From the NCBI GenBank assembly GCA_965217775.1, contig CBDCJH010000002.1, forward strand, positions 5,856,001 through 5,920,000: 64,000 bases of DNA, written 5' to 3'. Shown piece after piece: positions 3,807 through 23,149 of this stretch. The notes beneath the pieces are model-generated. The model ran no database searches, was not told the origin of the DNA, and saw only the letters and a program-made list of their open reading frames with translations. Position numbers and translations under genes: made by a program. This DNA comes from Acidobacteriota bacterium. Lineage in GTDB: Bacteria > Acidobacteriota > UBA6911 > RPQK01 > JAJDTT01. Within the stretch, counting starts at the first letter, position 1. Every line of letters begins with the position of its first letter.

Positions 3807-6215
3807 CTAACGGTTCCTGGATGAACGTCGAGAGCGGGAACTGCCCCCGGAAGACCCGGACCGTTTTGGCGCAGACCGCACCTTGGAGCTGGATGGCCTG
3901 CTTCTCGACGGCGCCGGAGCGCGATACGAGGGAGTCGACCTGGGTGAAGGCCGCGATCGCACCGCAGGACGAGAGCTGGACCGTGACGAGGACCGGACCG
4001 CCGGACGCGAGACTGTCCGCTGGGAAGATGGTCTCGACCGCCTCGAGCTGGAGACGGAGGGCCTTGACTGGTTGCGGGGGGTTCGTTTGGTGACGGACCC
4101 TCTCGATCCGGACGAGGACCGGGAAATACTTCGGCTCGAAGAAGAGGGTCGAGACGATCGCTGGGTCCGGGTCGGGGTGCGTGTGACGCTGGCGCCGGAC
4201 CGCCCGCTCGACCGGGAATTGGAGCGTTGACGGGTGAGCGATCGGCTGGACCCGGTTCGATTGGGACGGCTGACGTTGGATGGCCGGGAGGGTGCCCGAA
4301 CGCGAGAGCTCCCGGAGCGGGAGACGGAGGGCGTCGACGGGCTACGCCTGGTTTGTTTGGTGACGGACTTGCTCGATCCGGACGAGGACCGGGAAATACT
4401 TCGGCTCGAAGAAGAGGATCGGGAAGATTGGGGGGTCCGGGTCGGGGTACGGATGACGTTCGCGCCGGACCGCCCGCTTGACCGGGAATTGGACCGCTGG
4501 CGGATGAATGATGGGCTGGACCCGGTTCGATTGGGACGGCTGACGTTGGATGGCCGGGAGGGTGCCCGAACGCGAGAGTTCCCGGAGCGGGAGACGGAGG
4601 GCGTCGACGGGCTACGGCTGCTGCGTTTGGTGACGGATTCCCTCGATCCGGACGAAGGCCGGGAAATACTCCGGCTCGAAGTCGAGGAACGGGCCGGCTG
4701 CGAGGCCTGGGTGCGGGAACGGCTCAGGCTCTCCCGGGACGCGCCTTGTTGCCGGGAATCGGACCGTTGGCGCGTAATCGTTCGGATGGATCCGGTTCGA
4801 TCGGCACGGTTGACGGTCGATCGCCGGGAGGCGGTCCCGACCCGAGAGTCGCCGGAGCCCCTCCGGGTGACGGTGGAGCGCCGGGAGCCGCCTTCCACGA
4901 CTCGATCCCGAGTGCGGCCGGTGGATTGGGATGCCAACCTGGAGGAACGGACACCGCTTCTCGAAGAAACGGAGTTTCGACCCCTCACCCGGGGACGGCG
5001 GAGTTCCCTGGGGAGGCCCTCCCGGAATTTACCCACGATGGCGTTGGAGGCCACGACTCGCGTCCTGGTGGGTCCTCTTCCCAGATCGCGCCCATGAACG
5101 ACGGTCAGCCCGTTGGAACGGTCCCGCGGGTTCCAATTCCGGAAAATGTTGTTCTGAACGACGACGGTCGTGTTGCCGCGCCCCCGGCGGCCCCTTCCGT
5201 AGTAGCCTCTGGGCGACCAGCCGACGTAACCATTTCCCCAGTAGAAGTCGACGTGAGCCGGATGCCACCGGTTGAACCCCCCGGGCACCCAGGCCCAACG
5301 GGCCCTCGGCCGGTAATAGATCCAGCGCCCGTAATGGTAGGGAAGCCAACCCCAGGGCTCATAGCTGACCCAGGTCCACCCGCCGGCGAGGTACCCCCAC
5401 CGACCGTGGCGAAACGGCGCCCATCCCACCGAAACGGTGGGCACCCAGACGTGTCCGTGGGAGCCGTAGTTATACCAGTGGCCATGATGGTCCAGCGAAT
5501 GGACTCCCGCGTAGTCGACACCCCCCAGGTAGCCGGTGGAACGACTGCTCACCAGAAGGGCGTCGCGGCGCCCGCTCCAGAGCTCGAAATCGTCCAGATC
5601 CCGAACCAGCGCCTGGATTCCGCTCTGCTGTGCGTCCAGAAGCAACTCTTGTCCGGTTTCCACCTTCACCTTCCCGCGCGGGCTGGTGACTTCCGCCCGG
5701 CCCTTGTGGACCACCAGGCGCATGGTACCGCCGGGATCGACCTGGATTCGGTAGAGTCCTTTCTTTCGAAAGCTCACCGAGGCCAAATCCGTCTCCGCAT
5801 GGACCCGACCACCCTTGTTCACACGGAGGATCAGATCACCCTGGTGAATCTTCAGGATGTTCTCTTTTTGGGACAGCTCCGAGAAGAAGACGTCGGTCTC
5901 TCCGGAGATTCGGACGAAGTTGCCGTCCCCCAACTCCACCTCGATCCGGGAATCGGGGTGGGCGACGATCCGGTCGCCGCTGACCAGGGGAAGATTGAGG
6001 GTCACCTCGCTCCAGTCCACGTCACCCGAAGACTCGTAGGCGGCGCGGCCGTCCATGAAGCTGACCCGGGCCGGATGTTCCCGGCCGGCCGAAACCCACG
6101 TGGTGGAAAATCCCGTCATCAGGATAAGGAGCGCGGCCAGCGGAGTCAGTCGCTCCCCCCGCCACGCTTTCGAGTTTCCGGAACTGCCTGCTGGGATTGG
6201 TTTTGCTGTGTTCAT
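3807..6215 (-). CDS. Exported FecR-like + DUF6600 domain protein with long Ser/Arg-rich low-complexity tail (paralogue 1)
   Basis: Signal peptide; ARVSFMDG...NLPLVSGDRI FecR-like start; LDHHGHW...WAPFRHGRW...WVSYEPWGWLPYHYGRW DUF6600 signature; about 390-aa S/R/P-rich C-terminus. Confidence 0.85.
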   Translation of the reverse strand: MNTAKPIPAGSSGNSKAWRGERLTPLAALLILMTGFSTTWVSAGREHPARVSFMDGRAAYESSGDVDWSEVTLNLPLVSGDRIVAHPDSRIEVELGDGNFVRISGETDVFFSELSQKENILKIHQGDLILRVNKGGRVHAETDLASVSFRKKGLYRIQVDPGGTMRLVVHKGRAEVTSPRGKVKVETGQELLLDAQQSGIQALVRDLDDFELWSGRRDALLVSSRSTGYLGGVDYAGVHSLDHHGHWYNYGSHGHVWVPTVSVGWAPFRHGRWGYLAGGWTWVSYEPWGWLPYHYGRWIYYRPRARWAWVPGGFNRWHPAHVDFYWGNGYVGWSPRGYYGRGRRGRGNTTVVVQNNIFRNWNPRDRSNGLTVVHGRDLGRGPTRTRVVASNAIVGKFREGLPRELRRPRVRGRNSVSSRSGVRSSRLASQSTGRTRDRVVEGGSRRSTVTRRGSGDSRVGTASRRSTVNRADRTGSIRTITRQRSDSRQQGASRESLSRSRTQASQPARSSTSSRSISRPSSGSRESVTKRSSRSPSTPSVSRSGNSRVRAPSRPSNVSRPNRTGSSPSFIRQRSNSRSSGRSGANVIRTPTRTPQSSRSSSSSRSISRSSSGSSKSVTKQTRRSPSTPSVSRSGSSRVRAPSRPSNVSRPNRTGSSRSLTRQRSNSRSSGRSGASVTRTPTRTQRSSRPSSSSRSISRSSSGSRGSVTKRTPRNQSRPSVSSSRRSRPSSQRTVSRPAVRSSSRSSSRPAVRSRPSPRSTPSYRAPAPSRSRPSSSKVRSAPKRSGSSGGSSRSRRSSRNR
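4050..4810 (-). repeat. Intragenic tandem repeat, 270-bp (90-aa) period, about 3 copies
   Basis: CTCGATCCGGACGA..CCGGGAAATACT.CGGCTCGAAG recurs at 4102, 4372 and 4642. Confidence 0.85.
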
Positions 6216-6226
6216 GATGGCCTCAC

Positions 6227-6262
6227 ATCATACAGACGGAGTGCATCGCTGCTCGGTTCAAT
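6227..6262 (-). promoter_or_regulatory. ECF sigma-type promoter of paralogue 1
   Basis: Minus strand TGAACC-N16-CGTCTgtatgat, then GAGG RBS and ATG at 6215. Confidence 0.6.
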
Positions 6263-6313
6263 TGACCGGTGCAGTATCTTGGCGGCCAGCATCATTGTGC
6301 CATGTCGGAAACG

Positions 6314-6344
6314 AAAACGGGCAACCACCGGGGTTGCCCGTTTT
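6314..6344 (-). terminator. Intrinsic terminator-like hairpin after the paralogue 2 tail ORF
   Basis: AAAACGGGCAACC-accgg-GGTTGCCCGTTTT, with T-runs on both strands. Confidence 0.65.
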
Positions 6345-6396
6345 CTCCTGTCTTGTTGTCGCCACGCATCACCGCGCGTTCCGGACCAGTCCTGAA

Positions 6397-6903
6397 TCAG
6401 TTCCGGCTGCGGGAGGTGCTCCGAGAGCGGGACCCGCCTCCGGAAGATCCGGATTGCCTGGGAGGGGACTGTACCCGAGGGCTGGGAGAACGCCTGACCG
6501 ATGGAGCCGGAGAACGATACGTGGGAGTCGTCCTTTGCATCGACGGATACGGCGTCCGGGAAACAGATCGCGAAGAGGATCGGACCGACGGACTTGTAAA
6601 TGTCGGCGAGGAAGATGGCCTCGATCGTCTTGAACTCCAGACGGATGGCCTGGACGCGTTGCGACTGCTGCGGGTGGCGAAGGACCCTCTGGAGGCGGGC
6701 GAACTGCGAGACAAGCTACGGCTCGACGACCTTGACCGGAAGGACTGCTGCGCCCGGGTCCGAGTGCCGTCGGTTCCACTTCTGGCGACGCTGGAACGTC
6801 GAGAGCCGCCTTGCAGGACTCCCTCCCGAGAAATCCCGGAGGGTCGGGATGCCAATCTGGAGGAGCGGACGTCACTTCTCGAAAATGCGGAGTTTCGGTT
6901 CAT
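6397..6903 (-). CDS. Ser/Arg-rich tail of paralogue 2 in a shifted frame (separate ORF or frameshifted 3' part)
   Basis: MNRNSAFSRSDVRSSRLAS aligns with RGRNSVSSRSGVRSSRLAS of paralogue 1; its ATG overlaps the upstream TGA (ATGA). Confidence 0.6.
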   Translation of the reverse strand: MNRNSAFSRSDVRSSRLASRPSGISREGVLQGGSRRSSVARSGTDGTRTRAQQSFRSRSSSRSLSRSSPASRGSFATRSSRNASRPSVWSSRRSRPSSSPTFTSPSVRSSSRSVSRTPYPSMQRTTPTYRSPAPSVRRSPSPRVQSPPRQSGSSGGGSRSRSTSRSRN

Positions 6904-8129
6904 ACACGAGAACGCCGGAGTTCTCGGGGTAAACCTTGCCGGAGACCGCCCACGATGGCGCCGGAGGCCAAGACACGAGTCCTCGTTGGTTCTCTGCCCA
7001 AGTCGTTCCGGTTTACGACGGTCAGGCCGTTGGAACGATCCCGCGGATTCCAATTCCGTAAAGTATTGTTTTGGGCCACCGTGGTCGGATTTGCGCCTCC
7101 GATGCCCCTCCCGTAGTAGCCTCGAGGCGCCCAGCCGAAGTAGTCGCCACCCCAATAGAAGTCCACAAGAGCCGGCCGCCATCGGTTGAACCCACCCGGC
7201 ACCCATGCCCAACGGCCCATGGGCCCGTAATGGATCCAGCGTCCGTAGTGGTAGGGGAGCCAACCCCAGGGCTCATGGCTCACCCACGTCAGTCCAGAAG
7301 AGAGGTAACACCACCGTCCGTATCGGAACGGAGCCCATCCCACCGAGGCGTCGGGCACCCAAACGTGGCCGAAACTGCCCGCTTGGACCCAGTCGCCATG
7401 CTGGTCCAGCGTCTGGACTCCCGGGAAGTCGACGCCTCCCAGGTACCCGGCGGAAAGGCTGCTGACCATCACGGCGTCTCGCCGTCCACTCCAGAGCTCG
7501 AATTCGTCGAGTTCCCGAACCAGCGCCTGGATTCCGAGGTGGCGTGCATCAAGAAGCAACTGTTGCCCCGTCTCCACTCGTTCCTTCCCATGCCGGCTGC
7601 TGACTTCCGCCCGGCCCTTGTGGACCACCAGGCGGATCGAGCCGTCTGGATCGATCTGGATTCGGTAAAGTCCCTTTTTGCGAATCTTGACCGAAGCCTG
7701 GTCCAAGTCGACCTGGATCCGGCTGGCGTCGGCCACTCGCAGAATCAGGTCGCCCTCGTGAAGCTTCAGGATCGTCTTTTTTGGGGACAGTTCAGGGAAG
7801 AGGACATCGGTCTCCCCGAAGATTCGGACGAAGTTTCCATCCCCCAACTCCACCTCGATCCGCGAGTCGGGGTGGCCCATGATCCGGTCGCCGCTGACCA
7901 GGGGTAGATTGAGCGTCACCTCGTTCCAGTCCACGTCACCGGCAGTCTCGTAGGCGGCGCGTCCGTCCATGAAGCTGACCCGGGCCGGATGCTCCCGGCC
8001 GGCCGAAACCCAGGTGGCGGAAAATCCCGTAATCAGGGTAACGAACGCGCACAACAGAGCCGTTCGGCTCCACCGTCGCGTCCTTAAGTGTATGGAATTG
8101 CCTGTGGGAACTGGGGGTGAGATTCTCAT
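6900..8129 (-). CDS. Exported FecR-like + DUF6600 domain protein (paralogue 2), ending where the tail begins
   Basis: Closely similar to 3807..6215 up to GLPRELRRSRV*. Confidence 0.8.
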   Translation of the reverse strand: MRISPPVPTGNSIHLRTRRWSRTALLCAFVTLITGFSATWVSAGREHPARVSFMDGRAAYETAGDVDWNEVTLNLPLVSGDRIMGHPDSRIEVELGDGNFVRIFGETDVLFPELSPKKTILKLHEGDLILRVADASRIQVDLDQASVKIRKKGLYRIQIDPDGSIRLVVHKGRAEVSSRHGKERVETGQQLLLDARHLGIQALVRELDEFELWSGRRDAVMVSSLSAGYLGGVDFPGVQTLDQHGDWVQAGSFGHVWVPDASVGWAPFRYGRWCYLSSGLTWVSHEPWGWLPYHYGRWIHYGPMGRWAWVPGGFNRWRPALVDFYWGGDYFGWAPRGYYGRGIGGANPTTVAQNNTLRNWNPRDRSNGLTVVNRNDLGREPTRTRVLASGAIVGGLRQGLPRELRRSRV

Positions 8130-9413: not shown

Positions 9414-10460
9414 TCAATACCCGGCCACTTTGTCGACGACGTGCCGGAGGGGCCGTCCAGTGACAAACCGTTCAATGTTGTCCCGGATCAGATTGATGAG
9501 TCGTTCACCCGACCGGTCGGAGCGGGTCGCCACGTGGGGTGTGATGATGACGTTGTTCATTTTCCAAAGGGGATGGTCGGCGGGCAGCGGTTCCGGATCG
9601 GTGACGTCCAGACCGGCGGCCCGTACCTTGCCCGATCGCAGCGCCGCCACCAGCGCCTCGGTCTGGATCACCTTTCCCCGGGAAACGTTCACTACGTAAA
9701 CGCCCTCCTTCATGGCAGCGAACTCTTCGGCCCCCAGCATCCCTTCCGAAGCGGGCGTGTGGGGCACGCAGCTCACGACTACGTCGGCCTCCGGCAGAAA
9801 TCGGTGCAACTGGTCCGGCACCACCACTTCCTCCACGTTCCGGCTCAACGGGATGTCCTTGGGGTCGACGCCCAGCACTCGCATGCCGAACGCCGCGGCG
9901 CGTTGGGCCACCTGGGAACCGATACCGCCGAGTCCGATGATCAGCATGGTCTTGTGACGGAGTTCGATCATGGGCAGCCGGCCCGCCCCACGCTTCCAGG
10001 TTCCGCTTTCCATTTCCCGGTCGTACTGTTTCAGATTCCGGGTGAGCATGAGCAACAGGGCGAAGACATGGTCGGCGATCTCCGGCCCCATCATGATCTT
10101 GGCGTTGGTCAAGGTGATCTGGCTGTCCCTCAGTTCGGCCAAGTGGACGATCCTTTCCACCCCGGCGCTGGTGCTGTGCACCCATCTCAACTTCTTGCCG
10201 TGGCGCAAGATCTTCCGGCCCTTGTCACCATAGGGCAGGCCGATGATCGCATCGCAGTCGCCGATGACGTCGGCGAATTCACCGCGGCCGGGCGTCACCA
10301 ACTCCAGGTCGGGCAGTTTCTTCTCCAGGTCCGCCAATTGTTGCTTCTGGCCGGGCGAAACCAGGACCTTCACGGTCGATGCAAGCCCCAGGCTCTGGCT
10401 CTGGACGAATATCCAGAGCAAGCACCCGACCATCGTCTGAATTCCAAAAACGGGTTTCAT
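9414..10460 (-). CDS. D-2-hydroxyacid dehydrogenase with N-terminal signal-peptide-like extension
   Basis: GLGGIG Rossmann motif, VNVSRG, AGLDVTDPEPL, ITPHVA. Confidence 0.9.
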   Translation of the reverse strand: MKPVFGIQTMVGCLLWIFVQSQSLGLASTVKVLVSPGQKQQLADLEKKLPDLELVTPGRGEFADVIGDCDAIIGLPYGDKGRKILRHGKKLRWVHSTSAGVERIVHLAELRDSQITLTNAKIMMGPEIADHVFALLLMLTRNLKQYDREMESGTWKRGAGRLPMIELRHKTMLIIGLGGIGSQVAQRAAAFGMRVLGVDPKDIPLSRNVEEVVVPDQLHRFLPEADVVVSCVPHTPASEGMLGAEEFAAMKEGVYVVNVSRGKVIQTEALVAALRSGKVRAAGLDVTDPEPLPADHPLWKMNNVIITPHVATRSDRSGERLINLIRDNIERFVTGRPLRHVVDKVAGY

Positions 10461-10557: not shown

Positions 10558-11634
10558 TCATCTCCCCTCCAGGCACTTGAGAACGTCCAGCGGGTCCACT
10601 CCGCGATCCTTCAATTCCCATCCCAAATCGTAGAGGATCCCAAGAGTGACAGGTCCGGGCTCGTGGGTGGCGACACCAAGCGAAGACCAGGGAGTCATCA
10701 GTTCATTTGGGCTTCCTTCGGGGTAGGCATCTTCGTCCAGGTGAGATACTGAACTTCCAGATGAATACTCCTCCGGAGACCAGATCATCACGGGTCCCCC
10801 GTTAGCCTCCACACCCTTCAGATCAACCCCATGGAGCCCGCGGGCGTACTTCTTCCCCCACAACAGACGGTTTCCAGTGATGGCGTCGTGGAGTTCCGTT
10901 GATGGGTTTTCGAGTTCGTCTTCGTCGAGCCAACCGTGTTCTCGGGTTCTAAGGAAGAAGTCGAAATAGGTCATTTCATTCCCATCTTCAGAAGCCGAAT
11001 ACCCGGCCACATCTGTTCCATTATTCTCCTCGGTGAAATAGACAGAAGTGATACCGAGGCCATGGCCGATCTCGTGCAGGATCACCGAGATGAAATCGTA
11101 GGAGTCGCCATAGGGATCCCTATCCAGCCCGAAGTACCATTCCGCTGTATTGGACACAGTGATCTCCATGTCGACTTGCCCAGTGAACCAATCCTTGCCG
11201 TCCAGTTGATTCGCCAAGCTGGACGACCAACAAAGATTGTCCGTGTCGCATACAAAATATTCAGAAGCCTGAGCAAGAGGGCCTGGGTCATCTTCTTCCG
11301 AAAGATCTTCCCAGGACGCTTCTATCCTGATGGGAATGTTGATCAGCAGGGCGGAATCCCAAATGTTCACTGCGGCTTGAAAGGCGTCTCTCGCGTCTTC
11401 CGGAAAATCGCTGTCGTAGCTGATGATAAAATTCCGGTCGCGATAGGTGTCGAGGTAGAAGGACAACCCCTCAGGCTGCCGAGATCGCTTCTCCCGGCGC
11501 AACTGAATCTGTTGTATTTCCGTGAGAGTGGCTCCAGTGCAGACCGATTTGGTGCCCTCTGCCCTCATGACGTGATGAGTTTCTGTTTGAGGAATGGTCG
11601 TCGAAACGGCAAGAGCAAGTACCAGTAGCTTCAT
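10558..11634 (-). CDS. Secreted zinc metallopeptidase (metzincin-like)
   Basis: Signal peptide, HEIGHGLGI, distal SHLDE and ELMTP Met-turn. Confidence 0.8.
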   Translation of the reverse strand: MKLLVLALAVSTTIPQTETHHVMRAEGTKSVCTGATLTEIQQIQLRREKRSRQPEGLSFYLDTYRDRNFIISYDSDFPEDARDAFQAAVNIWDSALLINIPIRIEASWEDLSEEDDPGPLAQASEYFVCDTDNLCWSSSLANQLDGKDWFTGQVDMEITVSNTAEWYFGLDRDPYGDSYDFISVILHEIGHGLGITSVYFTEENNGTDVAGYSASEDGNEMTYFDFFLRTREHGWLDEDELENPSTELHDAITGNRLLWGKKYARGLHGVDLKGVEANGGPVMIWSPEEYSSGSSVSHLDEDAYPEGSPNELMTPWSSLGVATHEPGPVTLGILYDLGWELKDRGVDPLDVLKCLEGR

Positions 11635-12674: not shown

Positions 12675-13631
12675 ATGAAGAAGTGGACGCTACTGCTGGT
12701 ATTGACCGCATTTCCCCATCTGTCCGGCTCCGGGATCATCACCTCTTCGGAGGCGGCGGAGCCCCCGAAAAGGATCAACAAGGCCATCGAGCTGCTGGAG
12801 CGAGGGCAACCCATCTACTACACGGGAGGCCACGGCGGTTACGAGGAGGGGCGCAAGATGGCCCGGACCTGGGCCGACTACATCAACTACGAGATGGAGC
12901 ACGGATCATACGACGTGACTGCGCTCCGGAAGTTCATGCAGGGTCTGGTGGACGGTGGCCCCACGCCCAGCGGCCACCGGACGCCGGCCGTGATCTGCAC
13001 CCTGCCGGTGGGAGGGATCGACGAGGCCACCATGAAGGCCAATTACTGGATGGTTCAGCAGATCCTGGCCACCGGCGCCCACGGGATCCTGCTCTGCCAT
13101 GCCCGCACGCCCGGAGCGGTCCAGGTCCTGGTGCAGGCCGCCCGCTACCCCTTCCACCGCCAGCGTGTGGGAACCGGATTGGAGGAGGGTTTGAGAGGCA
13201 GCGGAGGCCAGGGTTTCGCGAGCCAGATCTGGGGTGTTGACGGGAACCGTTATCTCAAGGTCGCGGACCCCTGGCCTCTGAATCCCCAGGGGGAGATCCT
13301 CCTGGGCCTCAAGGTCGAAGACCGCCACGCTCTGATCAACGCCGAAGCGAGCGTGCAGGTGCCGGGTGTCGGATTCGCCGAGTGGGGGCCCAGCGACATG
13401 GGCTTCTCCTTGCGCTCCACGAAACTCCCGGGCGAGGAGCTGTCCACGCTGCTGCGGAAGGCCCGGCACCGGGTCTTCTCCGCCTGCAAGGCCGCCGGAG
13501 TCGCCTTTCTCAACGGGGTGCGTCCGGAAAACGTGGAAGCCATGATCGACGAAGGGGTCATGATCGGGTCCGGGGGGCAGGAAGCCGCTACGAAGGGCCG
13601 CAAGCACACCAAGCGGAAGATGCCCTGGTGA
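12675..13631 (+). CDS. HpcH/HpaI aldolase/citrate lyase family protein with signal peptide
   Basis: YEMEHG, QILATGAHGILL, LGLKVED, WGPSDMGFS; GGAGG RBS; MKKWTLLLVL N-terminus. Confidence 0.8.
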   Translation: MKKWTLLLVLTAFPHLSGSGIITSSEAAEPPKRINKAIELLERGQPIYYTGGHGGYEEGRKMARTWADYINYEMEHGSYDVTALRKFMQGLVDGGPTPSGHRTPAVICTLPVGGIDEATMKANYWMVQQILATGAHGILLCHARTPGAVQVLVQAARYPFHRQRVGTGLEEGLRGSGGQGFASQIWGVDGNRYLKVADPWPLNPQGEILLGLKVEDRHALINAEASVQVPGVGFAEWGPSDMGFSLRSTKLPGEELSTLLRKARHRVFSACKAAGVAFLNGVRPENVEAMIDEGVMIGSGGQEAATKGRKHTKRKMPW

Positions 13632-13670: not shown

Positions 13671-16352
13671 TCAGGCCTTCGCCGGGCCGGTCACAATCGG
13701 CTTGGCGACGACTTTCCCGCCGGAACGAGCCGTCGCGATCACCGTTTCCCCAGGTTCCACGTCGATGAGACTCGGGACGGGAAGCCTCCCGTCCGGGAGC
13801 GTTCGAGCGCCGCGTAACGGCCGTCCGTCCGTTCGAGACAGCAGCACGTCTGCGTTCGGGAGGAGACTGACGGGGGGCAGGGAACAGGAAGGGGTTCTCC
13901 CGGTGCGGGACGCGAGCTCACGGACATGGCCCCCGCCGCGGGGCCGTTCGCCCGGCGGGTCCACCAGGTTGCGCACCCGCAGACCGATGGCCGGGTCTTC
14001 CCCTCTCGGGTCGAACTCCATTTCCAGGAAATTCCAGTAGAACGGCCCGTCCAGCTTGCGCAGGTCCGGCGTGTCGTAGCTCTGATGGTAGAGCGCCGTG
14101 ACGGCCACGTCCCGTCCGTCGAAGTCGGTCATGCGCGGCCCGAAACCCTCCTTGACGCCCCGGCCTCCGCTGCGGCCGATGGGTCCGAAGGAACACTCGA
14201 AAACCCGGTGCTCCAGGCTCTGCAGGATCATGCCCGTATGCACGTCTCCGTAGACGGTGGTCACGCCGGTGCGGGAGCCGAGCAGCTCCAGCACACGATC
14301 CGCCCCCGCCGCGACCCATCCGGCGTAGTCTGCGGCGACCCGGTCGCGCTCGCCCAGACTGGTCTTGGCGTCGGACCGCCGCCCGTCCCCGGTCCAGATG
14401 GTGTGAAGGCCATTGATTCCGGTCAGGCAGATCAGAGGCGAGGAATCGGTGCGAATCGTCTCCCGCAACCAGGCGAACTGTTCCTCGCCCAGGAGACTGC
14501 GGGTGACGTCGGTCCTCGGGTAGAGGTTCTGCTTGGCGCCCCATCCCTGGTCATCCCAGATGTTCGTATCCTGGCTTGAGCGCCAAAGCCTGGAGTCGAG
14601 GATCAGGAGGCTGAAATCGCCGTCGGGCATCTTCCAGCGTCTCCATTTCTTGGGATTCGCGGTTCCGGAGGGCGCCTCGTCTCCCGTCACCAGGTGGTGG
14701 ACGATCTGAAAGTTGCGCCGCATGTAGTCCCGGTCCTGGCCGAGATCGCCGTGGGACCGGATCGCGATCTGTTCCGGACCCTTGACGTCGTCCATGCCGT
14801 AGTCGTGGTCGCCGGGATTGATGGTGTTCCAGTGGCGCATCATCTGCCAGCGCGTCGTCGGGCCGCAGAGCGTGGTGGTGACGATCTTGTACGCGTCGTC
14901 GGGGGACGGCGGGTACAGAAGGAGCTCCATGTACCAGACGTCGTCCTCCCACATCATGACCTGGAACCCGTAGTCCTCCAGGTGCCGGTAGGCGCCCGGC
15001 GTGGGCTGATCGTGAACGAAAAAGCCTCCACCCGGTCCCGCATCGGGCAGATTCGGTTGGCTCCCGCTGATGGCATGGCAGGAGAGGCCGCATAGACGGT
15101 AGGGGGCCGAGAGCCTGGGGAGCCTTCCAATGTATGAGCCACTTGCCGGAACCCCGCCGACCTGGCCGGTGCCGATGCCGACGGCGTCGCTGCCCAGTCT
15201 GGAATCCGCCGTCACATCGCGGCCGTCCTTCCAGACCGTGTAGTAGAGGTCGGTTTCCGCGGGATTCCGTGGCAGCGTGGCGTCGATCACGGCCGTGTTG
15301 CGCCGGAAGTCGTTGTTGACGATGGATGCGCGTCCCGCCACCGGAACCGACTTCCAGCCGCCGGCCGGATCCGGGTTGTCCGCGACTCGCACCTTCGCCC
15401 TCGTCCCGTCACCGCGGAACAGGGCAATGAAGCGCACGCGCCAGGCGCCGCCTTCCCGGTGCAGAGTGTCGCCCAGGGCGTAGCAGACGTGGCACTCGTT
15501 GATCCGCGGGTCGAGAGGCCGGTTGTCGCCGGGGTCGATGGCGTATTCGTCGATTTCGAAGTCCAGCAGGCCGCGCCCGGCGATCCCGGCGAAGCCCTGG
15601 AGGTGCTTGGCCCGATTCCGGTCCCGGAGCTGGATTTCGGCCATCCGGCCGCGCCCCTCGACTTCCAGCGACGCCGACACGGTCCCTCGATCGGTATCGT
15701 CGCCCGAAACAGCCACGACGATCCGAAAATGGTCCCCGGCCGACGGTTTCGGAACCCGCTTGACGGCGATGATCGTGTCCGAACCGTGCTCCCGGATTCC
15801 GAAGGTGCCATCGTCGGTCCAGGCCGCGATCCAAGCCGCTTTCCCGTCCGGGTCCGACATGCCGAAGGATTCGTACAGCGAGGCCGACCCGAAGGCGAGG
15901 CCAAGGAGGCCGTGTCCCGCCTGGTACATTCGCCAATTCGGATCGTCCTGACCCGATGGGCCGTGCGCAGGCGCGTGAACCCGGCCCGTCATTTCCAGCT
16001 TGTAGTTGCCGGCCAGACGCCAATGCCGGTGCCAGATCAGCCCCGGGGGAAGCGTGGGGTCGTAGTCGACCGGCATGGTGTGGCTCCCCAGCCGATCTCC
16101 GTGGGTCTCGTAGTGATAAGGGAATCCGGTGTTGCGGGCGCGGTCGCCGAGATTGTGGATTTTCCGCTGAAGGGCGTTGTTCCGGATGCTCCAAAAGCCG
16201 GGATTCAGGGTTTCCCAGTCGTCGCCGTGGTACAGGGAATCGGGCCGCCGGAAGGAGTTCGAGTGTGCCCGAGTTGTATTTGTGGAGACCGACGCCACCG
16301 CGGTCGCCGTCGCGGCCTGCAGGAACGTCCTGCGATTCATGGAGTTTTTCAT
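13671..16352 (-). CDS. Tat-exported PhoD-like metallophosphatase with large N-terminal extension
   Basis: NRRTFLQ Tat motif; DDVWY, GDHDY, LDSR, LLGEEQFAWL and GDVH motifs. Confidence 0.75.
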   Translation of the reverse strand: MKNSMNRRTFLQAATATAVASVSTNTTRAHSNSFRRPDSLYHGDDWETLNPGFWSIRNNALQRKIHNLGDRARNTGFPYHYETHGDRLGSHTMPVDYDPTLPPGLIWHRHWRLAGNYKLEMTGRVHAPAHGPSGQDDPNWRMYQAGHGLLGLAFGSASLYESFGMSDPDGKAAWIAAWTDDGTFGIREHGSDTIIAVKRVPKPSAGDHFRIVVAVSGDDTDRGTVSASLEVEGRGRMAEIQLRDRNRAKHLQGFAGIAGRGLLDFEIDEYAIDPGDNRPLDPRINECHVCYALGDTLHREGGAWRVRFIALFRGDGTRAKVRVADNPDPAGGWKSVPVAGRASIVNNDFRRNTAVIDATLPRNPAETDLYYTVWKDGRDVTADSRLGSDAVGIGTGQVGGVPASGSYIGRLPRLSAPYRLCGLSCHAISGSQPNLPDAGPGGGFFVHDQPTPGAYRHLEDYGFQVMMWEDDVWYMELLLYPPSPDDAYKIVTTTLCGPTTRWQMMRHWNTINPGDHDYGMDDVKGPEQIAIRSHGDLGQDRDYMRRNFQIVHHLVTGDEAPSGTANPKKWRRWKMPDGDFSLLILDSRLWRSSQDTNIWDDQGWGAKQNLYPRTDVTRSLLGEEQFAWLRETIRTDSSPLICLTGINGLHTIWTGDGRRSDAKTSLGERDRVAADYAGWVAAGADRVLELLGSRTGVTTVYGDVHTGMILQSLEHRVFECSFGPIGRSGGRGVKEGFGPRMTDFDGRDVAVTALYHQSYDTPDLRKLDGPFYWNFLEMEFDPRGEDPAIGLRVRNLVDPPGERPRGGGHVRELASRTGRTPSCSLPPVSLLPNADVLLSRTDGRPLRGARTLPDGRLPVPSLIDVEPGETVIATARSGGKVVAKPIVTGPAKA

Positions 16353-16445: not shown

Positions 16446-16997
16446 TCAGTTGTGGCACAGCTTGCAGGCTTGGTCGCGGCTCACGATTAGATGGTCCGCC
16501 ACAGTGGAGCCATGGGCGTTGTGGCATTGCCCGCAATTCCGCAGGACGTGGGGCGCGTGCTGGTGGGCCTCGGGGAAAGAGGCCTTGCTGTGACAGGCGA
16601 AGCAGCTTCCCTTGGAGCGGAATCGTCCCCGCCGGCTCACCGTGTGACATTGTTGGCAGCCGATGGCAAACGGGGGATGGAGGCGGAAGGGATCGAAGCC
16701 CTCGGGAGCTCCCTCTCCCACGAAAAAGCGGATCTCGCGGTGTCCGCCCTCCCAGACCAGGGCCAGCGAGTGCTCACCGGGAGCCGGGGTCAACTTGGCA
16801 TGGAAGACGTTGGGAAAGGGCTCGTGGGCGGGGAGGACCTGTCCGTCCAGCTCCAACCGGGCACCGGGGCCGGTGGCCGCGATGCTGATCTCTCCCTCGG
16901 GCAGAATCGATCGATGGGCCGGACGGACGATCTTTCCTTCTTCCCCGGCGGCGGAGGAGAAAAGACCGAGCGCTATGGCGGCAGCCAGGGTCCTCAC
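16446..16997 (-). CDS. Tetraheme c-type cytochrome with N-terminal Ig-like segment
   Basis: Signal peptide; CQQCH, CFACH, CGQCH, CKLCH. Confidence 0.85.
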   Translation of the reverse strand: MRTLAAAIALGLFSSAAGEEGKIVRPAHRSILPEGEISIAATGPGARLELDGQVLPAHEPFPNVFHAKLTPAPGEHSLALVWEGGHREIRFFVGEGAPEGFDPFRLHPPFAIGCQQCHTVSRRGRFRSKGSCFACHSKASFPEAHQHAPHVLRNCGQCHNAHGSTVADHLIVSRDQACKLCHN

Positions 16998-17761
16998 AAG
17001 TGGAGCCGGCAGATGTAACCCGAGTATCGGCTCTTCGTATCGACGGCGCCGGGACCGATGCCTGCGTCGGTGTAGTAGAAGACCCCCTGGTGGAGGGTCA
17101 TGCCATGGGGATCGGGGTCGGACCGGCTCAACTGGATGGCCTCCATGATGCGGCCGTCCTTGGCGTCCAGACGGTGGATCACGTAGTCATTGGAGAACAT
17201 GCACCAGATGGAGCCGTCGTCCCAGGCCAGGCCGTGGGCTCGCCCCAAGGTCACCGGGATGGAGTGACGGATGCGGAAATCGGGATCCACCTGGGTCAGG
17301 CTCTTGCTGCTCAGGGTGGTGATCCAGAGGGTGTTCTGGTTCCAGGTGAGGCCGTGCACCCCTCCTCCTCCGGGAATCGGATGCCGGGCCAGGGTCTGTC
17401 CGGTTTCAGGATCGACCTTCAGGATCCTGCCGGTCTTGGCGTCGGTCGGTCTCGGCTCTCGTCTGAGAGCGGGCCCGTTGGCCGCCATCCAGAGATACCC
17501 CCCGCCGTAAGCCATGCCGCTGGTGTTGGTGGACTCGGTGGGAACCGCCTGCAACACCTTTCCGGTCTTCCAGTCCAGGAGATAGGCCTTGTTGGTGAGC
17601 TGCTCACCGACCCAGAGGCCCTCGTTGGTGGCCTCCAGCGCGTTGGGATACTTGTCCGGAGAGGGCCACAGGGGCTCCACCCTGGGCTTTCGGACCGGAT
17701 AGTCCCGCGGCCCCAGCGCGGCCGCCGCCAGCAGTTCCAGAAACTCTCTGCGATAGAACAT
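16994..17761 (-). CDS. Tat-exported beta-propeller protein (glutaminyl cyclase/Vgb-like blades)
   Basis: MFYRREFLEL; repeats GMAYGGGYLW, GLTWNQNTLW, GLAWDDGSIW, GMTLHQGVFY; TGATG overlap with the upstream gene. Confidence 0.75.
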   Translation of the reverse strand: MFYRREFLELLAAAALGPRDYPVRKPRVEPLWPSPDKYPNALEATNEGLWVGEQLTNKAYLLDWKTGKVLQAVPTESTNTSGMAYGGGYLWMAANGPALRREPRPTDAKTGRILKVDPETGQTLARHPIPGGGGVHGLTWNQNTLWITTLSSKSLTQVDPDFRIRHSIPVTLGRAHGLAWDDGSIWCMFSNDYVIHRLDAKDGRIMEAIQLSRSDPDPHGMTLHQGVFYYTDAGIGPGAVDTKSRYSGYICRLHL

Positions 17762-18963
17762 CAGATACTCCGAATCCGGACCAGAGATTTGTCGATGTCG
17801 GCGATTCTGGCGACGCCGGCCATCCCCATATCCAGCGCCAACTCCACTCGCAGTAGTTCCAGTACCCGCGAAACACCCCGGTGGCCGAAGCAGGTCAGCC
17901 CCCAGAGATAGGGACGAGCCACACCCACCGCCGTAGCTCCCAGAGCAAGGGCCTTCAGGATGTCGCCGCCGCGGCGAAATCCTCCGTCGACCAGCACGGG
18001 CAGGCGGCCCTTGGCCGCGGCGACGCACTCGGGCAGAGCCTCGATGGTGCCGCCCACATGATCCAGTTGCCGGGCCCCGTGGTTGGAGACCACGACCGCC
18101 GCCACGCCCCGCTCGGCGCACTTGGCGGTGTCCTCGGCGGTCATGACGCCCTTGATCATGAGCGGCAGATCCGTCATCGCCATCAGCCGGTCGATCGTCT
18201 CCCAGGTCGGAGTGGGAAAGGGCCGCTCGGGATAGACGCCGGTGCGCCAGGGACGGTCCTGGGGCTGGTAGATCAGATTGCCGTCGGCGTCCCTGGGGAT
18301 TCCGGTTTCGCACCAGCGGCGCACGAATCGGTGGTAGATGCTCCGTTCCCGGTAGGAGACATGCATGTTGTCGACGGTGAAGCAGATGCCGCCGGCCCCC
18401 AGATCCTCCAGCCGCTCCACGAAGTCCAACATGCTGTCTTCGGTGCGGAACTCACCCCCGGTGGTGTATTGCCACCATGGTTCGGGTCCCTCGCCCGACT
18501 CCAGGAATTCGTCGATGCCGCCGTTGGTGACGAACATGGCTCCGGAAGCCGCCGCGCCGCGGGCGGCCTCCTCTTCTCCCCCCGGAAAGAAGCAGTTCTT
18601 GCCGCCGGCCGGACAGACGAAGATGGGATAGTCCAGTTTCCGTCCCAGGAAGTCGACGGAGGTGTCGATCTTGTGGACGTCGGTCAGGATCTTGGGCCGG
18701 AGGATGATCCGCTCGAAGGCTTTCCGGTTGTCGCGGAGGGACACTTCGTCCTGGGAGCCTTCGGCCATGTAGTCCCACGCCACTGGGTCCAATTTGGACT
18801 GGGCCAACTTGGCGAAGTCGAACACGTTGACCAGATCCAGAAGCTGCTTCTGGTTTTCCGGGGACGAAAGCGCGGATTCGAGCAGGCCGGTCCGTCCCGC
18901 CAGAAGTGGTGAAGAGATCAGGAACTGGGCAAAGGCTGCTAGGGCGTGACGTCGAGTGAGCAT
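17761..18963 (-). CDS. FMN-dependent alpha-hydroxy acid oxidase/dehydrogenase with Tat-like signal
   Basis: SNHGARQLD, DGGFRRGGDILKALALGA, IKGV; N-terminus MLTRRHALAAF. Confidence 0.9.
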   Translation of the reverse strand: MLTRRHALAAFAQFLISSPLLAGRTGLLESALSSPENQKQLLDLVNVFDFAKLAQSKLDPVAWDYMAEGSQDEVSLRDNRKAFERIILRPKILTDVHKIDTSVDFLGRKLDYPIFVCPAGGKNCFFPGGEEEAARGAAASGAMFVTNGGIDEFLESGEGPEPWWQYTTGGEFRTEDSMLDFVERLEDLGAGGICFTVDNMHVSYRERSIYHRFVRRWCETGIPRDADGNLIYQPQDRPWRTGVYPERPFPTPTWETIDRLMAMTDLPLMIKGVMTAEDTAKCAERGVAAVVVSNHGARQLDHVGGTIEALPECVAAAKGRLPVLVDGGFRRGGDILKALALGATAVGVARPYLWGLTCFGHRGVSRVLELLRVELALDMGMAGVARIADIDKSLVRIRSI

Positions 18964-19139
18964 CAAGGACGATCGGTTTTTCGGCAGACCCGCTTCGGGT
19001 TCAGTTTAGCAGTTGCCGGACCGCCCCGAAACCCGGCACCTAGATCGGACTGACGCCAAAGCCGGTGAACCGTAGCCTCGGCGCTTGGTCGCGGCCGGAG
19101 CGCTTGTGGAATAATTGCGGCCCAACCGGGAGGGGCGCC

Positions 19140-20471: not shown

Positions 20472-20911
20472 TCACCTTCTGTGACGAGGCGGGTGTCGCG
20501 ACTGGTATTGAGAGACCTGCAATGCGACCTCCTCGGTCGCTCGAATGAGCGCCTCGACCAAAGGCTCGTTGACGTCGATATCGCCTTCGTATTCGGACAG
20601 GTTCCGTTTTCGATGGGCCTGGTCCAGCACGCGCCATTTTTGGTTCGGAAAATCCTGCGTTTGGCGGAGGCATTGAAACACGATGTAGCGGTTTCTGTTC
20701 CGATACCCGGCGATCCGCAACGCCCCCAACGATAACGCGTGCGCCGCGTTATACGCCAAGTCGAAACGGGACTCGATACTCAGATCGCTGTTTTTCGCAT
20801 CTGCCAGTCCGCCAATCCCGACCGGACTAAGCCAACGACTTCCCCACTCGCCGGCGCTTCCGCCTTGAGAACGCCGATCCTTACGAGATTGTCGAGTCCT
20901 TCATGCGGCAT
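20472..20911 (-). pseudogene. HEPN-type toxin partner of MNT, frameshifted
   Basis: MPHEGLDNLVRIGVLKAEAP...SGLA, then a 1-nt shift near 20808 to LADAKNSDLSIESRFDLAYNAAH...HRKRNLSEY (RxxxxY HEPN-like motif). Confidence 0.7.
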
Positions 20912-21560
20912 CGACGGAACCTATGAGTAGGATGTGTGGGCCTTGGAGGACCCTGTTCAGAAACCCGGCCCCGGTCGCTCGACGCCGCCGGAACTCACTC
21001 GACGTGTATAGAGTCGGGCTCACGCGCCGACCAAGCCTCTTTTCGACAGGGGCCAGGGCAACGCAGGTCGCTTCCAACGTCAGTTCATCGGAGACCAGAA
21101 GAAGATCGATGTCGCTCGCTGCCGTGTCCGCTTGTTTTGCGACCGATCCATAGAGCAGGGCCAGTTTGAGTTTGTCCGCGAGCGGCTGGAGCGCGGCGCG
21201 AACCGGTTCCTTTAGGCCCACGGTCTTTCTGATGATGCTGCACAACTCGTGGAACAGAGGCGAGTCGCGATTTGCCTGGTAGTGTTTCTGGTTGCCGATC
21301 CTGGAAACCGTCGCCAAACCGCTCTCGGCGAGGCGGCGCAGTTCGCGTTGAACAGCGCCACGCCCCGAGCCTGCCAAGGCGATGATCTCGGTGACGAAGA
21401 AACTGCGGTCCGGCTGACCGAACAGCAGAGCGAACACGCGCTTTTGCGTCGTCGTGAACAGCGCATCGGCCAGCGAGGAACCGACAAGTCCGTCGTTCCG
21501 CCGCTTCGATGCGAGAGGATACGGGGTGGTTTCCGGGGAGTCCGAATCGTTCATACCCAT
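20901..21560 (-). CDS. wHTH + minimal nucleotidyltransferase (MNT) antitoxin
   Basis: N-terminal HTH (GSGRGAVQRELRRLAESGL); LYGSVAK...SDIDLLLV. Confidence 0.85.
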   Translation of the reverse strand: MGMNDSDSPETTPYPLASKRRNDGLVGSSLADALFTTTQKRVFALLFGQPDRSFFVTEIIALAGSGRGAVQRELRRLAESGLATVSRIGNQKHYQANRDSPLFHELCSIIRKTVGLKEPVRAALQPLADKLKLALLYGSVAKQADTAASDIDLLLVSDELTLEATCVALAPVEKRLGRRVSPTLYTSSEFRRRRATGAGFLNRVLQGPHILLIGSVDAA

Positions 21561-21590
21561 TTCGGGGATAATAGTACCTGAAATGGGTAT
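21553..21590. promoter_or_regulatory. Operator palindrome overlapping the MNT promoter and start
   Basis: ATACCCATTTC-N16-GAAATGGGTAT; contains TATTAT 7 nt before the ATG. Confidence 0.65.
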
Positions 21591-21846
21591 TTCAAGCCGT
21601 CCACCATACGGACTGGATGGGCCAAGCCGTCGAGGATCGCCGTGTTTCTTGAATCCGTGCGAGTCCCTGCCACCCTCTGTCCTTGCCTCTTACACGAGAT
21701 TTTGGGAGTTACGTTTCCAAGGATAGGCTTACTGTATAAGCCCCATTGCAAGGGATGTCTGGGCGCCCAGACGGCAGTGCATGGAAAGCGGCGGCCTTTC
21801 TGGGAGAATGCGCAAATCGTTGGTCACTGCCGCTACGACCATGCTT

Positions 21847-22540
21847 CTACAACTCTTCTCCCCATGTATTGAGGGGTCGTAAAAGCGCTTCAGTGATAGA
21901 GGACTCGAGTTCCTTGACGAGTGCACGATCATGGCTGACTTCGACGAACTCGGAAAGCTCGAAGAGGGCATCCTCTACGTCTGGTTGAGACAGGCTCGTC
22001 ATTTCCACGATTTGGCTCACCCTCAGCTGCGGATCGCGAAAGATAGCGTACTTGGTGGTCTGGACGAAAAGCTTCGCAACGGTGGAAGCTGCCGCAGAAT
22101 AGTCGGTCTCGGTTTCAACGGACTGGGTTACGACTTCCGGAGGTGGCCCGAGCGGCGGCCTTTTAGTGATGCCGTATATATCGTTGATGAGTTGGTTCAT
22201 CCTAGTTTCAAAGTCTGGCAGATCCGGCGACAACATCCCTGAGAACAACGGTGGCAGCATGTCAGGTGGCAGACCATGACGCAGAGGGATGAAACTACAT
22301 TGATTGCGAATCTTCAGAACAGTAATGAATCCATCTCCTGATTGACCCACGGCTTTGTCAGCGACCTTGGTGTGAGCAGCACAATGAAGTGCGTACAGTT
22401 GCCAAGGCCTTCGTCAATTTTTTGCCTCAAACTGTCGCCCGAGCGGATGCACCATTCGGCCCACCATGTGTCGATGCCGTTACCGTGGAGAATCGCAGCA
22501 ATCCTTTTGGTTAGCTTGCGATCTTCCCAGGCATGGCTCT
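21847..22540 (-). pseudogene. TIR-domain protein remnant (5' truncated, frameshifted)
   Basis: SHAWEDRK...GIDTWWAEWCIRSGDSLRQKIDEGL...FIVLLTPRSLTKPWVNQEMD, then a frame change near 22325 to KIRNQCSFIPLRHGLPP... Confidence 0.75.
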
Positions 22541-22617
22541 TCCGGACACGGTTCCGCGTTGCATTTGCTTCTGCGCCGCATGATAATGTCATGCACAATA
22601 TCAAAGGAGAATCAGTC

Positions 22618-22881
22618 ATGGCTGCAAATCAACTCGTCCAGGCCCGCATTGACGGGGCCGTCAAGGAAGAGGCGGCCGCCGTGCTGGCCGCGATTGGCTT
22701 GACGGTGTCCGATGCGGTGCGGCTGCTGTTGACCAAGGTTGCTCAGGAAAAGAGACTGCCGTTCGCGCCGCTGATTCCAAACGAAGCCACCATCGAGGCA
22801 ATGAAGGAAGCCCGAAAGGGCGGTCTTTCTAAGTTCGACAACGTGCAGGCCCTGATGGACGACCTGCATGCGCAAGATTGA
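22618..22881 (+). CDS. dinJ: RelB/DinJ family antitoxin
   Basis: AGGAG RBS; VQARIDGAVKEEAAAVLAAIGLTVSDAVRLLL...PNEATIEAM. Confidence 0.9.
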   Translation: MAANQLVQARIDGAVKEEAAAVLAAIGLTVSDAVRLLLTKVAQEKRLPFAPLIPNEATIEAMKEARKGGLSKFDNVQALMDDLHAQD

Positions 22882-23149
22882 GCGCACCAGCCAGTTCAAG
22901 CGCGATTACAAACGCGAGGCCAAGGGCCGGCATCGGGCGTCACTGGACGCTGCGTTGGTGCCCCTCCTGGTGGCCTTGGCTGCTGACCGGCCATTGGAAC
23001 CCCGGCACCACGACCATTCGTTGAGCGTTAACTGGAAGGATCACCGCGATTGCCATGTGAAGCCCGATTTGGTGCTGATTTACCTGAACCCCGGCACCGG
23101 CACGTTGCGGCTGGTTCGCCTCGGGTCCCATTCGGAACTCGGGCTTTGA
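22868..23149 (+). CDS. yafQ: YafQ family mRNA interferase toxin
   Basis: TSQFKRDYK...DHSL..NWKDHRDCHVKPDLVLIY...RLGSHSEL; overlaps dinJ. Confidence 0.9.
   Translation: MRKIERTSQFKRDYKREAKGRHRASLDAALVPLLVALAADRPLEPRHHDHSLSVNWKDHRDCHVKPDLVLIYLNPGTGTLRLVRLGSHSELGL

Follow-up and report, generated by a model that had tools for sequence, protein, structure and literature searches.

A putative exported FMN hydroxy-acid dehydrogenase coinherited with a tetraheme cytochrome c in Acidobacteria

Where would an exported alpha-hydroxy-acid (HAOx) dehydrogenase deliver its electrons, and could a multiheme cytochrome encoded beside it be the acceptor? The question is raised by a three-gene module in a 64,000-nucleotide stretch of DNA (hereafter, the window; positions 5,856,001 to 5,920,000 of contig CBDCJH010000002.1, assembly GCA_965217775.1) from an Acidobacteriota bacterium, whose genome (G000) is 6.4 Mb in size and 97.9% complete. 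The module encodes a flavin mononucleotide (FMN)-dependent HAOx enzyme, a beta-propeller and a cytochrome c with four heme-binding motifs, and a preliminary description of the locus proposed that they form a periplasmic split flavocytochrome. Our analyses make the enzyme and the cytochrome the conserved unit, and we consider it rather probable that a periplasmic FMN dehydrogenase hands its electrons to this dedicated cytochrome. We infer the location, the directness and the direction of the transfer from the genes, motifs, predicted folds, conservation and co-inheritance that were observed.

Results

The enzyme and the cytochrome travel together

The module consists of three overlapping open reading frames (ORFs), all on the minus strand and where the preliminary description had placed them:

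17761..18963, minus strand: FMN-dependent HAOx oxidoreductase, 400 amino acids (aa) from ATG; PF01070 match with E 1e-95
16994..17761, minus strand: beta-propeller with a twin-arginine (RR) leader and a glutaminyl-cyclase-like fold, 255 aa, starting MFYRREFL; AF2 model with a predicted local distance difference test (pLDDT) score of 92.8
16446..16997, minus strand: tetraheme cytochrome c with a Sec-type leader and no lipobox, 183 aa; PF09699 match above cut-off

The enzyme has 401 aa if read from the adjacent TTG at 18966. The genes overlap at their junctions as described, with a 1-nt overlap (TGATG) between enzyme and propeller at 17761 and a 4-nt overlap (GTGA) between propeller and cytochrome at 16994-16997.

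A search for conserved neighbourhoods, set by the preliminary description as one of its refutation tests, revealed that the genes co-occur widely beyond the window's family. Among 251 genomes of Bryobacterales, the order of genome G425, 84 carried both enzyme and cytochrome, 7 the enzyme only, 3 the cytochrome only and 157 neither; in 66 of the 84, the two genes lay at most 5 kb apart, in several gene orders. The scans beyond the family covered the best 80 of 100 loci from genomes, of which 70 were full length and were counted while 10 partial or distant matches were set aside, and the best 80 of 199 loci from metagenomes. The enzyme was present in 53 of the 70 genome loci, in the order enzyme-propeller-cytochrome in 33, directly beside the cytochrome in 15, with another gene between in two and in convergent orientation in three; the loci without it had the propeller and the cytochrome (12) or the cytochrome alone (5). 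Among the 80 metagenome loci, the enzyme was found in 56 (35 with enzyme and cytochrome side by side, 10 with the propeller between them, nine convergent and two with the propeller first), and of the 24 loci without it, 20 have a short upstream sequence. Adjacency outlasts rearrangement, the pair staying together in the orders enzyme-propeller-cytochrome, enzyme-cytochrome and propeller-enzyme-cytochrome as well as in convergent form. All 16 tested genomes with an enzyme-less cytochrome locus, one of them the unpublished G422, carried the enzyme elsewhere at an identity of at least 57%, and no other family tracked the pair closely in 140 loci.

Within the window's family, 12 of 14 fetched regions had all three genes in order, with the propeller split in one of them; of the other two, one is truncated by the end of its contig and the other is degraded. 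In the degraded region (L034:4516-8661, genome G013), the enzyme breaks off at residue 327, where an ORF resembling a transposase by eye interrupts it, the propeller is missing and the cytochrome is partial. Since the flanking genes are syntenic too, synteny at the family level is weak evidence of linkage and was rejected as proof of it. A phylum-wide sample contained the enzyme and the cytochrome only in G000 and seven members of its family, and in none of 393 other genomes, a result that sits oddly beside the 84 of 251 in the Bryobacterales sample. The claim of a three-gene module thus holds for a part of it: the link of enzyme and cytochrome is conserved, whereas the propeller is an optional member, found in genomes without the pair as well.

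In several Bryobacterales genomes, the module enzyme is encoded in tandem copies, some of which lie apart from a propeller-cytochrome pair (L204, L206-L210, L212, L050). In 19 metagenome loci, a nameless family stands immediately downstream of the cytochrome (L164:1321-1758 and kin, the fragment having no Pfam match).

A discrete enzyme clade with a changed active site

With 321 bits against PF01070 (FMN_dh; cut-off 24.9), the enzyme is clearly a member of its family and the only full-length FMN_dh of the window's genome. It falls under every NCBIfam cut-off, with 165 bits against a required 645 for L-lactate oxidase, 143 against 550 for LldD and 179 against 471 for MftD. Its features, all on the minus strand, are the following:

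18895..18963, minus strand: twin-arginine-type leader, approximately residues 1-23; R4 and R5 each in 75 of 76 orthologues
18592-18594, minus strand: Cys124, the second invariant Cys, conserved in orthologues
18463..18465, minus strand: Thr167 replacing the substrate-binding Tyr (Tyr146 of AvLOx); Thr in 76 of 76 orthologues
18205..18369, minus strand: active-site lid (loop 4) with the invariant Cys218, from conservation in 76 orthologues and a lid alignment
18070..18084, minus strand: NHGAR with catalytic His295 and Arg298, both in 76 of 76 orthologues

The NHGARQLD site had been described as intact, and the motif is indeed complete (SNHGARQLD, residues 293-301), with D198, R205, K271, H295 and R298 in 76 of 76 orthologues and Y65 in 75; the active site as a whole is nevertheless non-canonical, with Thr167 where AvLOx has Tyr146. 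For the catalytic His/Arg, the Asp, the FMN Lys and the carboxylate Tyr and Arg, we used the glycolate oxidase numbering. The residue register comes from alignments to solved relatives, five residues of AvLOx being named in PMC9670274. A Tyr stands at the position of Thr167 in 94 of the 117 nearest outside representatives, and it is conserved at 100% in the L-lactate oxidase (LOx) cluster (PMC9670274). In one screen of the family, 8 of 10 inactive members were without a conserved residue, compared with only 2 of 14 active ones (PMC8491902). With Thr in place of this Tyr, lactate, glycolate and mandelate are less secure as candidate substrates; judging from its residues, the enzyme probably retains activity and uses an unusual substrate. 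The loop 118-124 (GGKNC) is remodelled in an invariant, clade-specific way, and a disulfide between Cys124 and Cys218 is possible.

Among the nearest relatives, the 150 top-ranking of 16,988 representatives (clustered at 50%), the identity of full-length matches falls from 68% to 43%. In a FastTree phylogeny of 128 rows (117 of the 150 representatives and 14 locus proteins, with three rows omitted and the lid columns removed), the enzyme orthologues form a single branch with a support of 100 and a long stem. From its sequence, we regard the enzyme as a discrete, cytochrome-linked HAOx clade and file it by domain as a PF01070 variant, not as a canonical 2-hydroxy-acid oxidase. A fusion of the enzyme to a multiheme domain was considered and dropped, none appearing among the best 150 representatives in a search not aimed at longer proteins.

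Predicted export

The RR leaders reported for the enzyme and the propeller are conserved well above expectation: all 72 enzyme orthologues and all 115 propeller homologues have an RR among their first 30 residues, where shuffled leaders gave 13.9 and 35.0, and R4 and R5 are invariant in 116 propeller sequences. A strict TatFind-like rule for the twin-arginine translocation (Tat) pathway was passed by 37 of the 72 enzymes and 47 of the 115 propellers (0.1 and 0.2 after shuffling). The window's enzyme leader fails it through a His at +2, and the propeller leader through a Tyr at -1 and a run of just nine uncharged residues. Given the conserved leader, Tat export of the enzyme is likely. Signals have already been predicted for FMN lactate dehydrogenases, of the Tat type in PauLDH and of the Sec type in SsLDH (PMC9670274); predicted export itself is not the novel part.

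The tetraheme cytochrome

The third protein had been described as a Sec-type protein with four CxxCH motifs, and this stands, with the motifs kept in 98 of 99 homologues and the leader judged by eye. It has two parts:

16710..16943, minus strand: immunoglobulin (Ig)/fibronectin type III (FnIII)-like beta-sandwich, approximately residues 19-96 (Z 10.1, root-mean-square deviation (rmsd) 2.2, 77 aligned)
16452..16679, minus strand: heme domain, residues 107-182, with four CxxCH and extra His at 107, 145, 147 and 162

The AF2 model has a pLDDT of 87.8, and its best Ig-domain match was tied with other Ig-like folds, the whole-model searches having probed the Ig domain only. Of the extra His, H107, H145 and H147 are present in 99 of 99 homologues and H162 in 98; together with the four CxxCH, they would be sufficient for bis-His ligation. 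The heme domain has a profile match (E 1e-8) to 6R2Q chain A, which we take to be MtrA although the structure file carries another label, and it reaches 27.4 bits against the DmsE decaheme model TIGR03508 (cut-off 192.2), having four hemes and not ten. Its motifs, spare His and leader, along with the assembly genes of the genome, make it a multiheme c-type cytochrome; the genome holds TatC, three PF01578 matches (cytochrome c assembly), COX1 and two cytochrome b matches. Atlas clusters of the cytochrome are without names and mostly from Acidobacteriota.

An optional propeller

The propeller with RREFL was found as described. Its best fold matches are bacterial and plant glutaminyl cyclases (3mbr: Z 24.2, rmsd 2.3, 206 aligned, 18% identity), with identities of 14-18% and a PF05096 (glutaminyl cyclase) score of 20.6 bits, below the cut-off of 22.3. 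Glutaminyl cyclases are five-bladed. A single-sequence search found no solved homologue, and a profile gave weak matches to Vgb lyase and YncE. H136, H176 and H219 are invariant, which makes an enzyme role plausible. A paralogue is present elsewhere in the window's genome, and homologues occur in 76 of the 84 genomes with enzyme and cytochrome and in 13 genomes with neither; as the pair occurs without the propeller and the propeller without the pair, it was ruled out as an obligate subunit.

A putative heme motif in the lid of related enzymes

The lid contains a CxxCH in 16 of the 117 representatives, all 16 with RR-type leaders (P0254, P0255, P0257, P0258, P0267, P0274, P0283, P0286, P0292, P0299, P0309, P0319, P0327, P0328, P0338 and P0339; also loci L243-L272). 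Put differently, the motif is found in 16 of 36 representatives with an RR leader, compared with none of 71 leaderless ones and none of 10 whose extension lacks an RR. All of 120 homologues of P0257, some named Gemmatimonadaceae, retain it, as do 30 of 30 Bryobacterales loci, fetched from 45 of 151 genomes; in about 1.5 kb of sequence flanking these 30 loci, module cytochrome, propeller and multi-CxxCH ORF were all absent. The first Cys of the motif aligns with Cys218 of the window's enzyme, in a poor lid alignment, and both clades fall inside one tree group with a support of 93. This RR-leader clade gives a hint of coupling between exported HAOx enzymes and heme c, and its members are candidates for a single-chain flavocytochrome c. 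It would be unusual for a Tat substrate to carry attached heme, and the CxxCH could possibly be a disulfide or metal site instead.

Likeness to known systems

The likeness to flavocytochrome b2 drawn in the preliminary description turned out to be an analogy only, because the partner consists of an Ig domain and an MtrA/DmsE-like c-type tetraheme, not a b5 domain; PF00173 (cytochrome b5-like domain) has no match in the enzyme or in the cytochrome, which has CxxCH motifs. Yeast flavocytochrome b2 (EC 1.1.2.3) belongs to the same FMN TIM-barrel family (E of approximately 1e-60 to 1FCB) and also couples flavin to heme outside the cytosol (PMC6472588), but its single b-type heme domain is fused, whereas the module has a separate protein with an Ig domain and four c hemes, and the module enzyme is bacterial, with an RR leader and Thr for the substrate Tyr. 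The soluble FMN-dependent L-lactate dehydrogenases PauLDH and SsLDH of the LOx cluster are likewise HAOx enzymes with predicted export signals, from a class with low O2 reactivity, but their cluster keeps Tyr146 where the module enzyme has Thr, and a cytochrome partner is not named in the passages covered (PMC9670274); the module enzyme scores far under the L-lactate oxidase and LldD models. Its nearest solved or curated relatives are glycolate oxidase, 4-hydroxymandelate oxidase, mandelate dehydrogenase and the pre-mycofactocin synthase MftD, from which it is set apart by distance, scores below the curated cut-offs, its altered pocket and its leader.

p-Cresol methylhydroxylase, gluconate 2-dehydrogenase and the multiheme flavocytochromes come from flavoprotein families that are unrelated to the module enzyme and dependent on flavin adenine dinucleotide. 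They resemble the module in combining a flavoenzyme with a dedicated c-type cytochrome, and the passages covered of PMC6472588 list no HAOx/FMN member with heme c among the flavoprotein-cytochrome c enzymes. The doubled-CXXCH cytochromes (PF09699; DmsE/MtrA) are similar to the module cytochrome in heme-motif spacing and profile but have ten hemes, compared with four and an N-terminal Ig domain; no porin gene was recognised among the recurring neighbours of the module. By analogy, the module would work like flavocytochrome b2 or the flavoprotein-cytochrome c enzymes while being a member of neither.

Genome setting and transcripts

Upstream of the module lies a divergent amidohydrolase gene and, 93 bp downstream of it, a gene for an 893-aa protein (13671-16352, minus strand) with a weak PhoD-like match (24.8 bits, cut-off 27) and a weak Tat signal match; this synteny is limited to the window's genus, and in the sister genus a different gene (L030:9689-10543) takes its place downstream of the cytochrome. 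Further genes are a D-2-hydroxyacid dehydrogenase (9414-10460, minus strand) and an HpcH-like aldolase (12675-13631, plus strand), with signal-like N-terminal leaders judged by eye; in 13 of 140 loci, an HpcH-like gene is found close to the module, which may point to a setting of sugar-acid or 2-keto-acid chemistry. The window also contains an AT-richer metalloprotease-like gene (10558-11634, minus strand; NF038122 below cut-off) that is not at that place in the fetched relatives, a variable island (20901-23149) of a nucleotidyltransferase gene and a small gene pair resembling, by eye, a RelB/YafQ-type toxin-antitoxin, and FecR and DUF6600 genes in tandem (3807-8129, minus strand). Elsewhere in the genome, a heme-copper oxidase cluster with cytochrome b and an ORF with eight CxxCH (G000:C2:5067000-5078300) is a plausible electron sink.

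A promoter and terminator scan of the module gave zero of each and was uninformative. Contigs from three metatranscriptome runs, all belonging to a single study, overlap parts of the genes, and two of these contigs span the enzyme-propeller junction, though contigs alone cannot prove a transcript.

Discussion

The exported, hydroxy-acid-oxidising module feeding a multiheme cytochrome, as first proposed, is supported by the co-occurrence of the genes, the RR leaders and the TatC, assembly and oxidase genes of the genome; the propeller, however, is not part of its core. In the reading that we favour, the enzyme would fold with its flavin in the cytoplasm and leave through Tat, while the cytochrome would be exported by Sec and receive its four hemes. 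In the periplasm, the enzyme would oxidise a 2-hydroxy acid or something closely analogous to one; plain L-lactate and glycolate are improbable substrates. It would be re-oxidised by its dedicated tetraheme rather than by O2, with the cytochrome relaying the electrons into a heme-copper oxidase chain; the propeller may be an accessory enzyme that is optional and acts on either the substrate or the product. Many HAOx enzymes assayed in vitro are dehydrogenases, not oxidases (PMC9670274).

Several observations weigh against this picture. The pair lies more than 5 kb apart or on separate contigs in 18 of the 84 genomes, and as the genomes are kin, the co-occurrence statistic is overstated; the window's genome has 15 ORFs with at least four CxxCH, and the strict TatFind-like rule is passed by neither of the window's two leaders. 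Thr167 displaces a Tyr that is fully conserved in the LOx cluster (PMC9670274), and the loss of a conserved residue was the rule among the inactive members of the screen (8 of 10; PMC8491902). The tree does not place the lid-CxxCH clade as sister of the module enzyme clade, and the 20 RR-leader representatives without a lid CxxCH imply that export needs no heme in cis. A complex prediction of the enzyme (residues 36-400, folded without alignment) and the cytochrome (residues 18-183) scored 0.07 against a mark of 0.32, a result that speaks neither for nor against their interaction.

The electrons might also flow the other way, from the tetraheme to the FMN enzyme, which would then reduce a periplasmic keto acid or another acceptor. 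This would resemble the small tetraheme cytochromes that feed periplasmic reductases, and it suits a heme domain like the MtrA/DmsE-type repeats with His enough for bis-His ligation; hemes of that type are often low-potential. Co-inheritance is compatible with both directions, and the Tyr-to-Thr site could suit other chemistry. We still find reverse flow rather unlikely: characterised HAOx members oxidise hydroxy acids (PMC8491902), the window's genome, at 97.9% completeness, encodes an aerobic oxidase chain and gave no match to NrfD, and no membrane quinol dehydrogenase was recognised among the recurring neighbour families, which were judged by eye and three of which were scanned.

Alternatively, the two proteins might merely share an exported pathway or regulon, the enzyme using O2 or a mobile carrier and the cytochrome doing a separate job. 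The genomes with the genes apart fit this, as does the prediction of exported FMN lactate dehydrogenases elsewhere with no cytochrome partner named in the passages covered (PMC9670274), and RR-type leaders are common in the window's genome (228 of 4334 crude ORFs). Yet a near one-to-one co-inheritance that no other family follows so closely, and direct adjacency in loci that lack the propeller (15 of 70 and 35 of 80), make a mere shared pathway unlikely. It is very unlikely, finally, that the enzyme acts outside alpha-hydroxy-acid chemistry (on another substrate class or in sensing), is not exported, or merely sits in inherited synteny. The invariant, clade-specific Thr167 and GGKNC loop would agree with other chemistry, but the remaining catalytic residues are all invariant; the RR, kept in 72 of 72, speaks against a cytoplasmic enzyme; and although synteny within the window's family extends to the aldolase and D-2-hydroxyacid dehydrogenase genes on the flanks, outside the family the flanks change and the pair persists.

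Beyond direct transfer from the enzyme to its cytochrome, the lid motif allows a wider proposal, which we find plausible but short of likely: a so far undescribed bacterial group of FMN hydroxy-acid dehydrogenases, exported by Tat and connected to heme c both in cis, through the lid CxxCH, and in trans, through the Ig-tetraheme. As parts of this joint reading, the in cis form would be a one-chain flavocytochrome c, and in the in trans form, the lid would keep one Cys, the Ig-tetraheme would accept the electrons and the substrate pocket would be rebuilt. We found no description of the module or of the lid CxxCH in the literature searched, most subscription papers and supplements lying outside its scope.

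If true, these enzymes would be bacterial heme-c counterparts of flavocytochrome b2. The cited papers, in the passages covered, name no natural electron acceptor for the soluble FMN hydroxy-acid dehydrogenases of bacteria, and the module offers a specific candidate. Heme-c-coupled HAOx enzymes, those of the lid-CxxCH clade above all, would be candidates for direct-electron-transfer biosensors. Approximately one third of the sampled Bryobacterales genomes carry the module, and this wide carriage, with the enzyme being the sole full-length member of its family in the window's genome, may point to a respiratory substrate that soil and marine Acidobacteria commonly use in the periplasm. Many uncultured Acidobacteria pair a putatively exported HAOx enzyme with a four-heme cytochrome, probably to oxidise an acid outside the cytoplasm and so feed their respiration.

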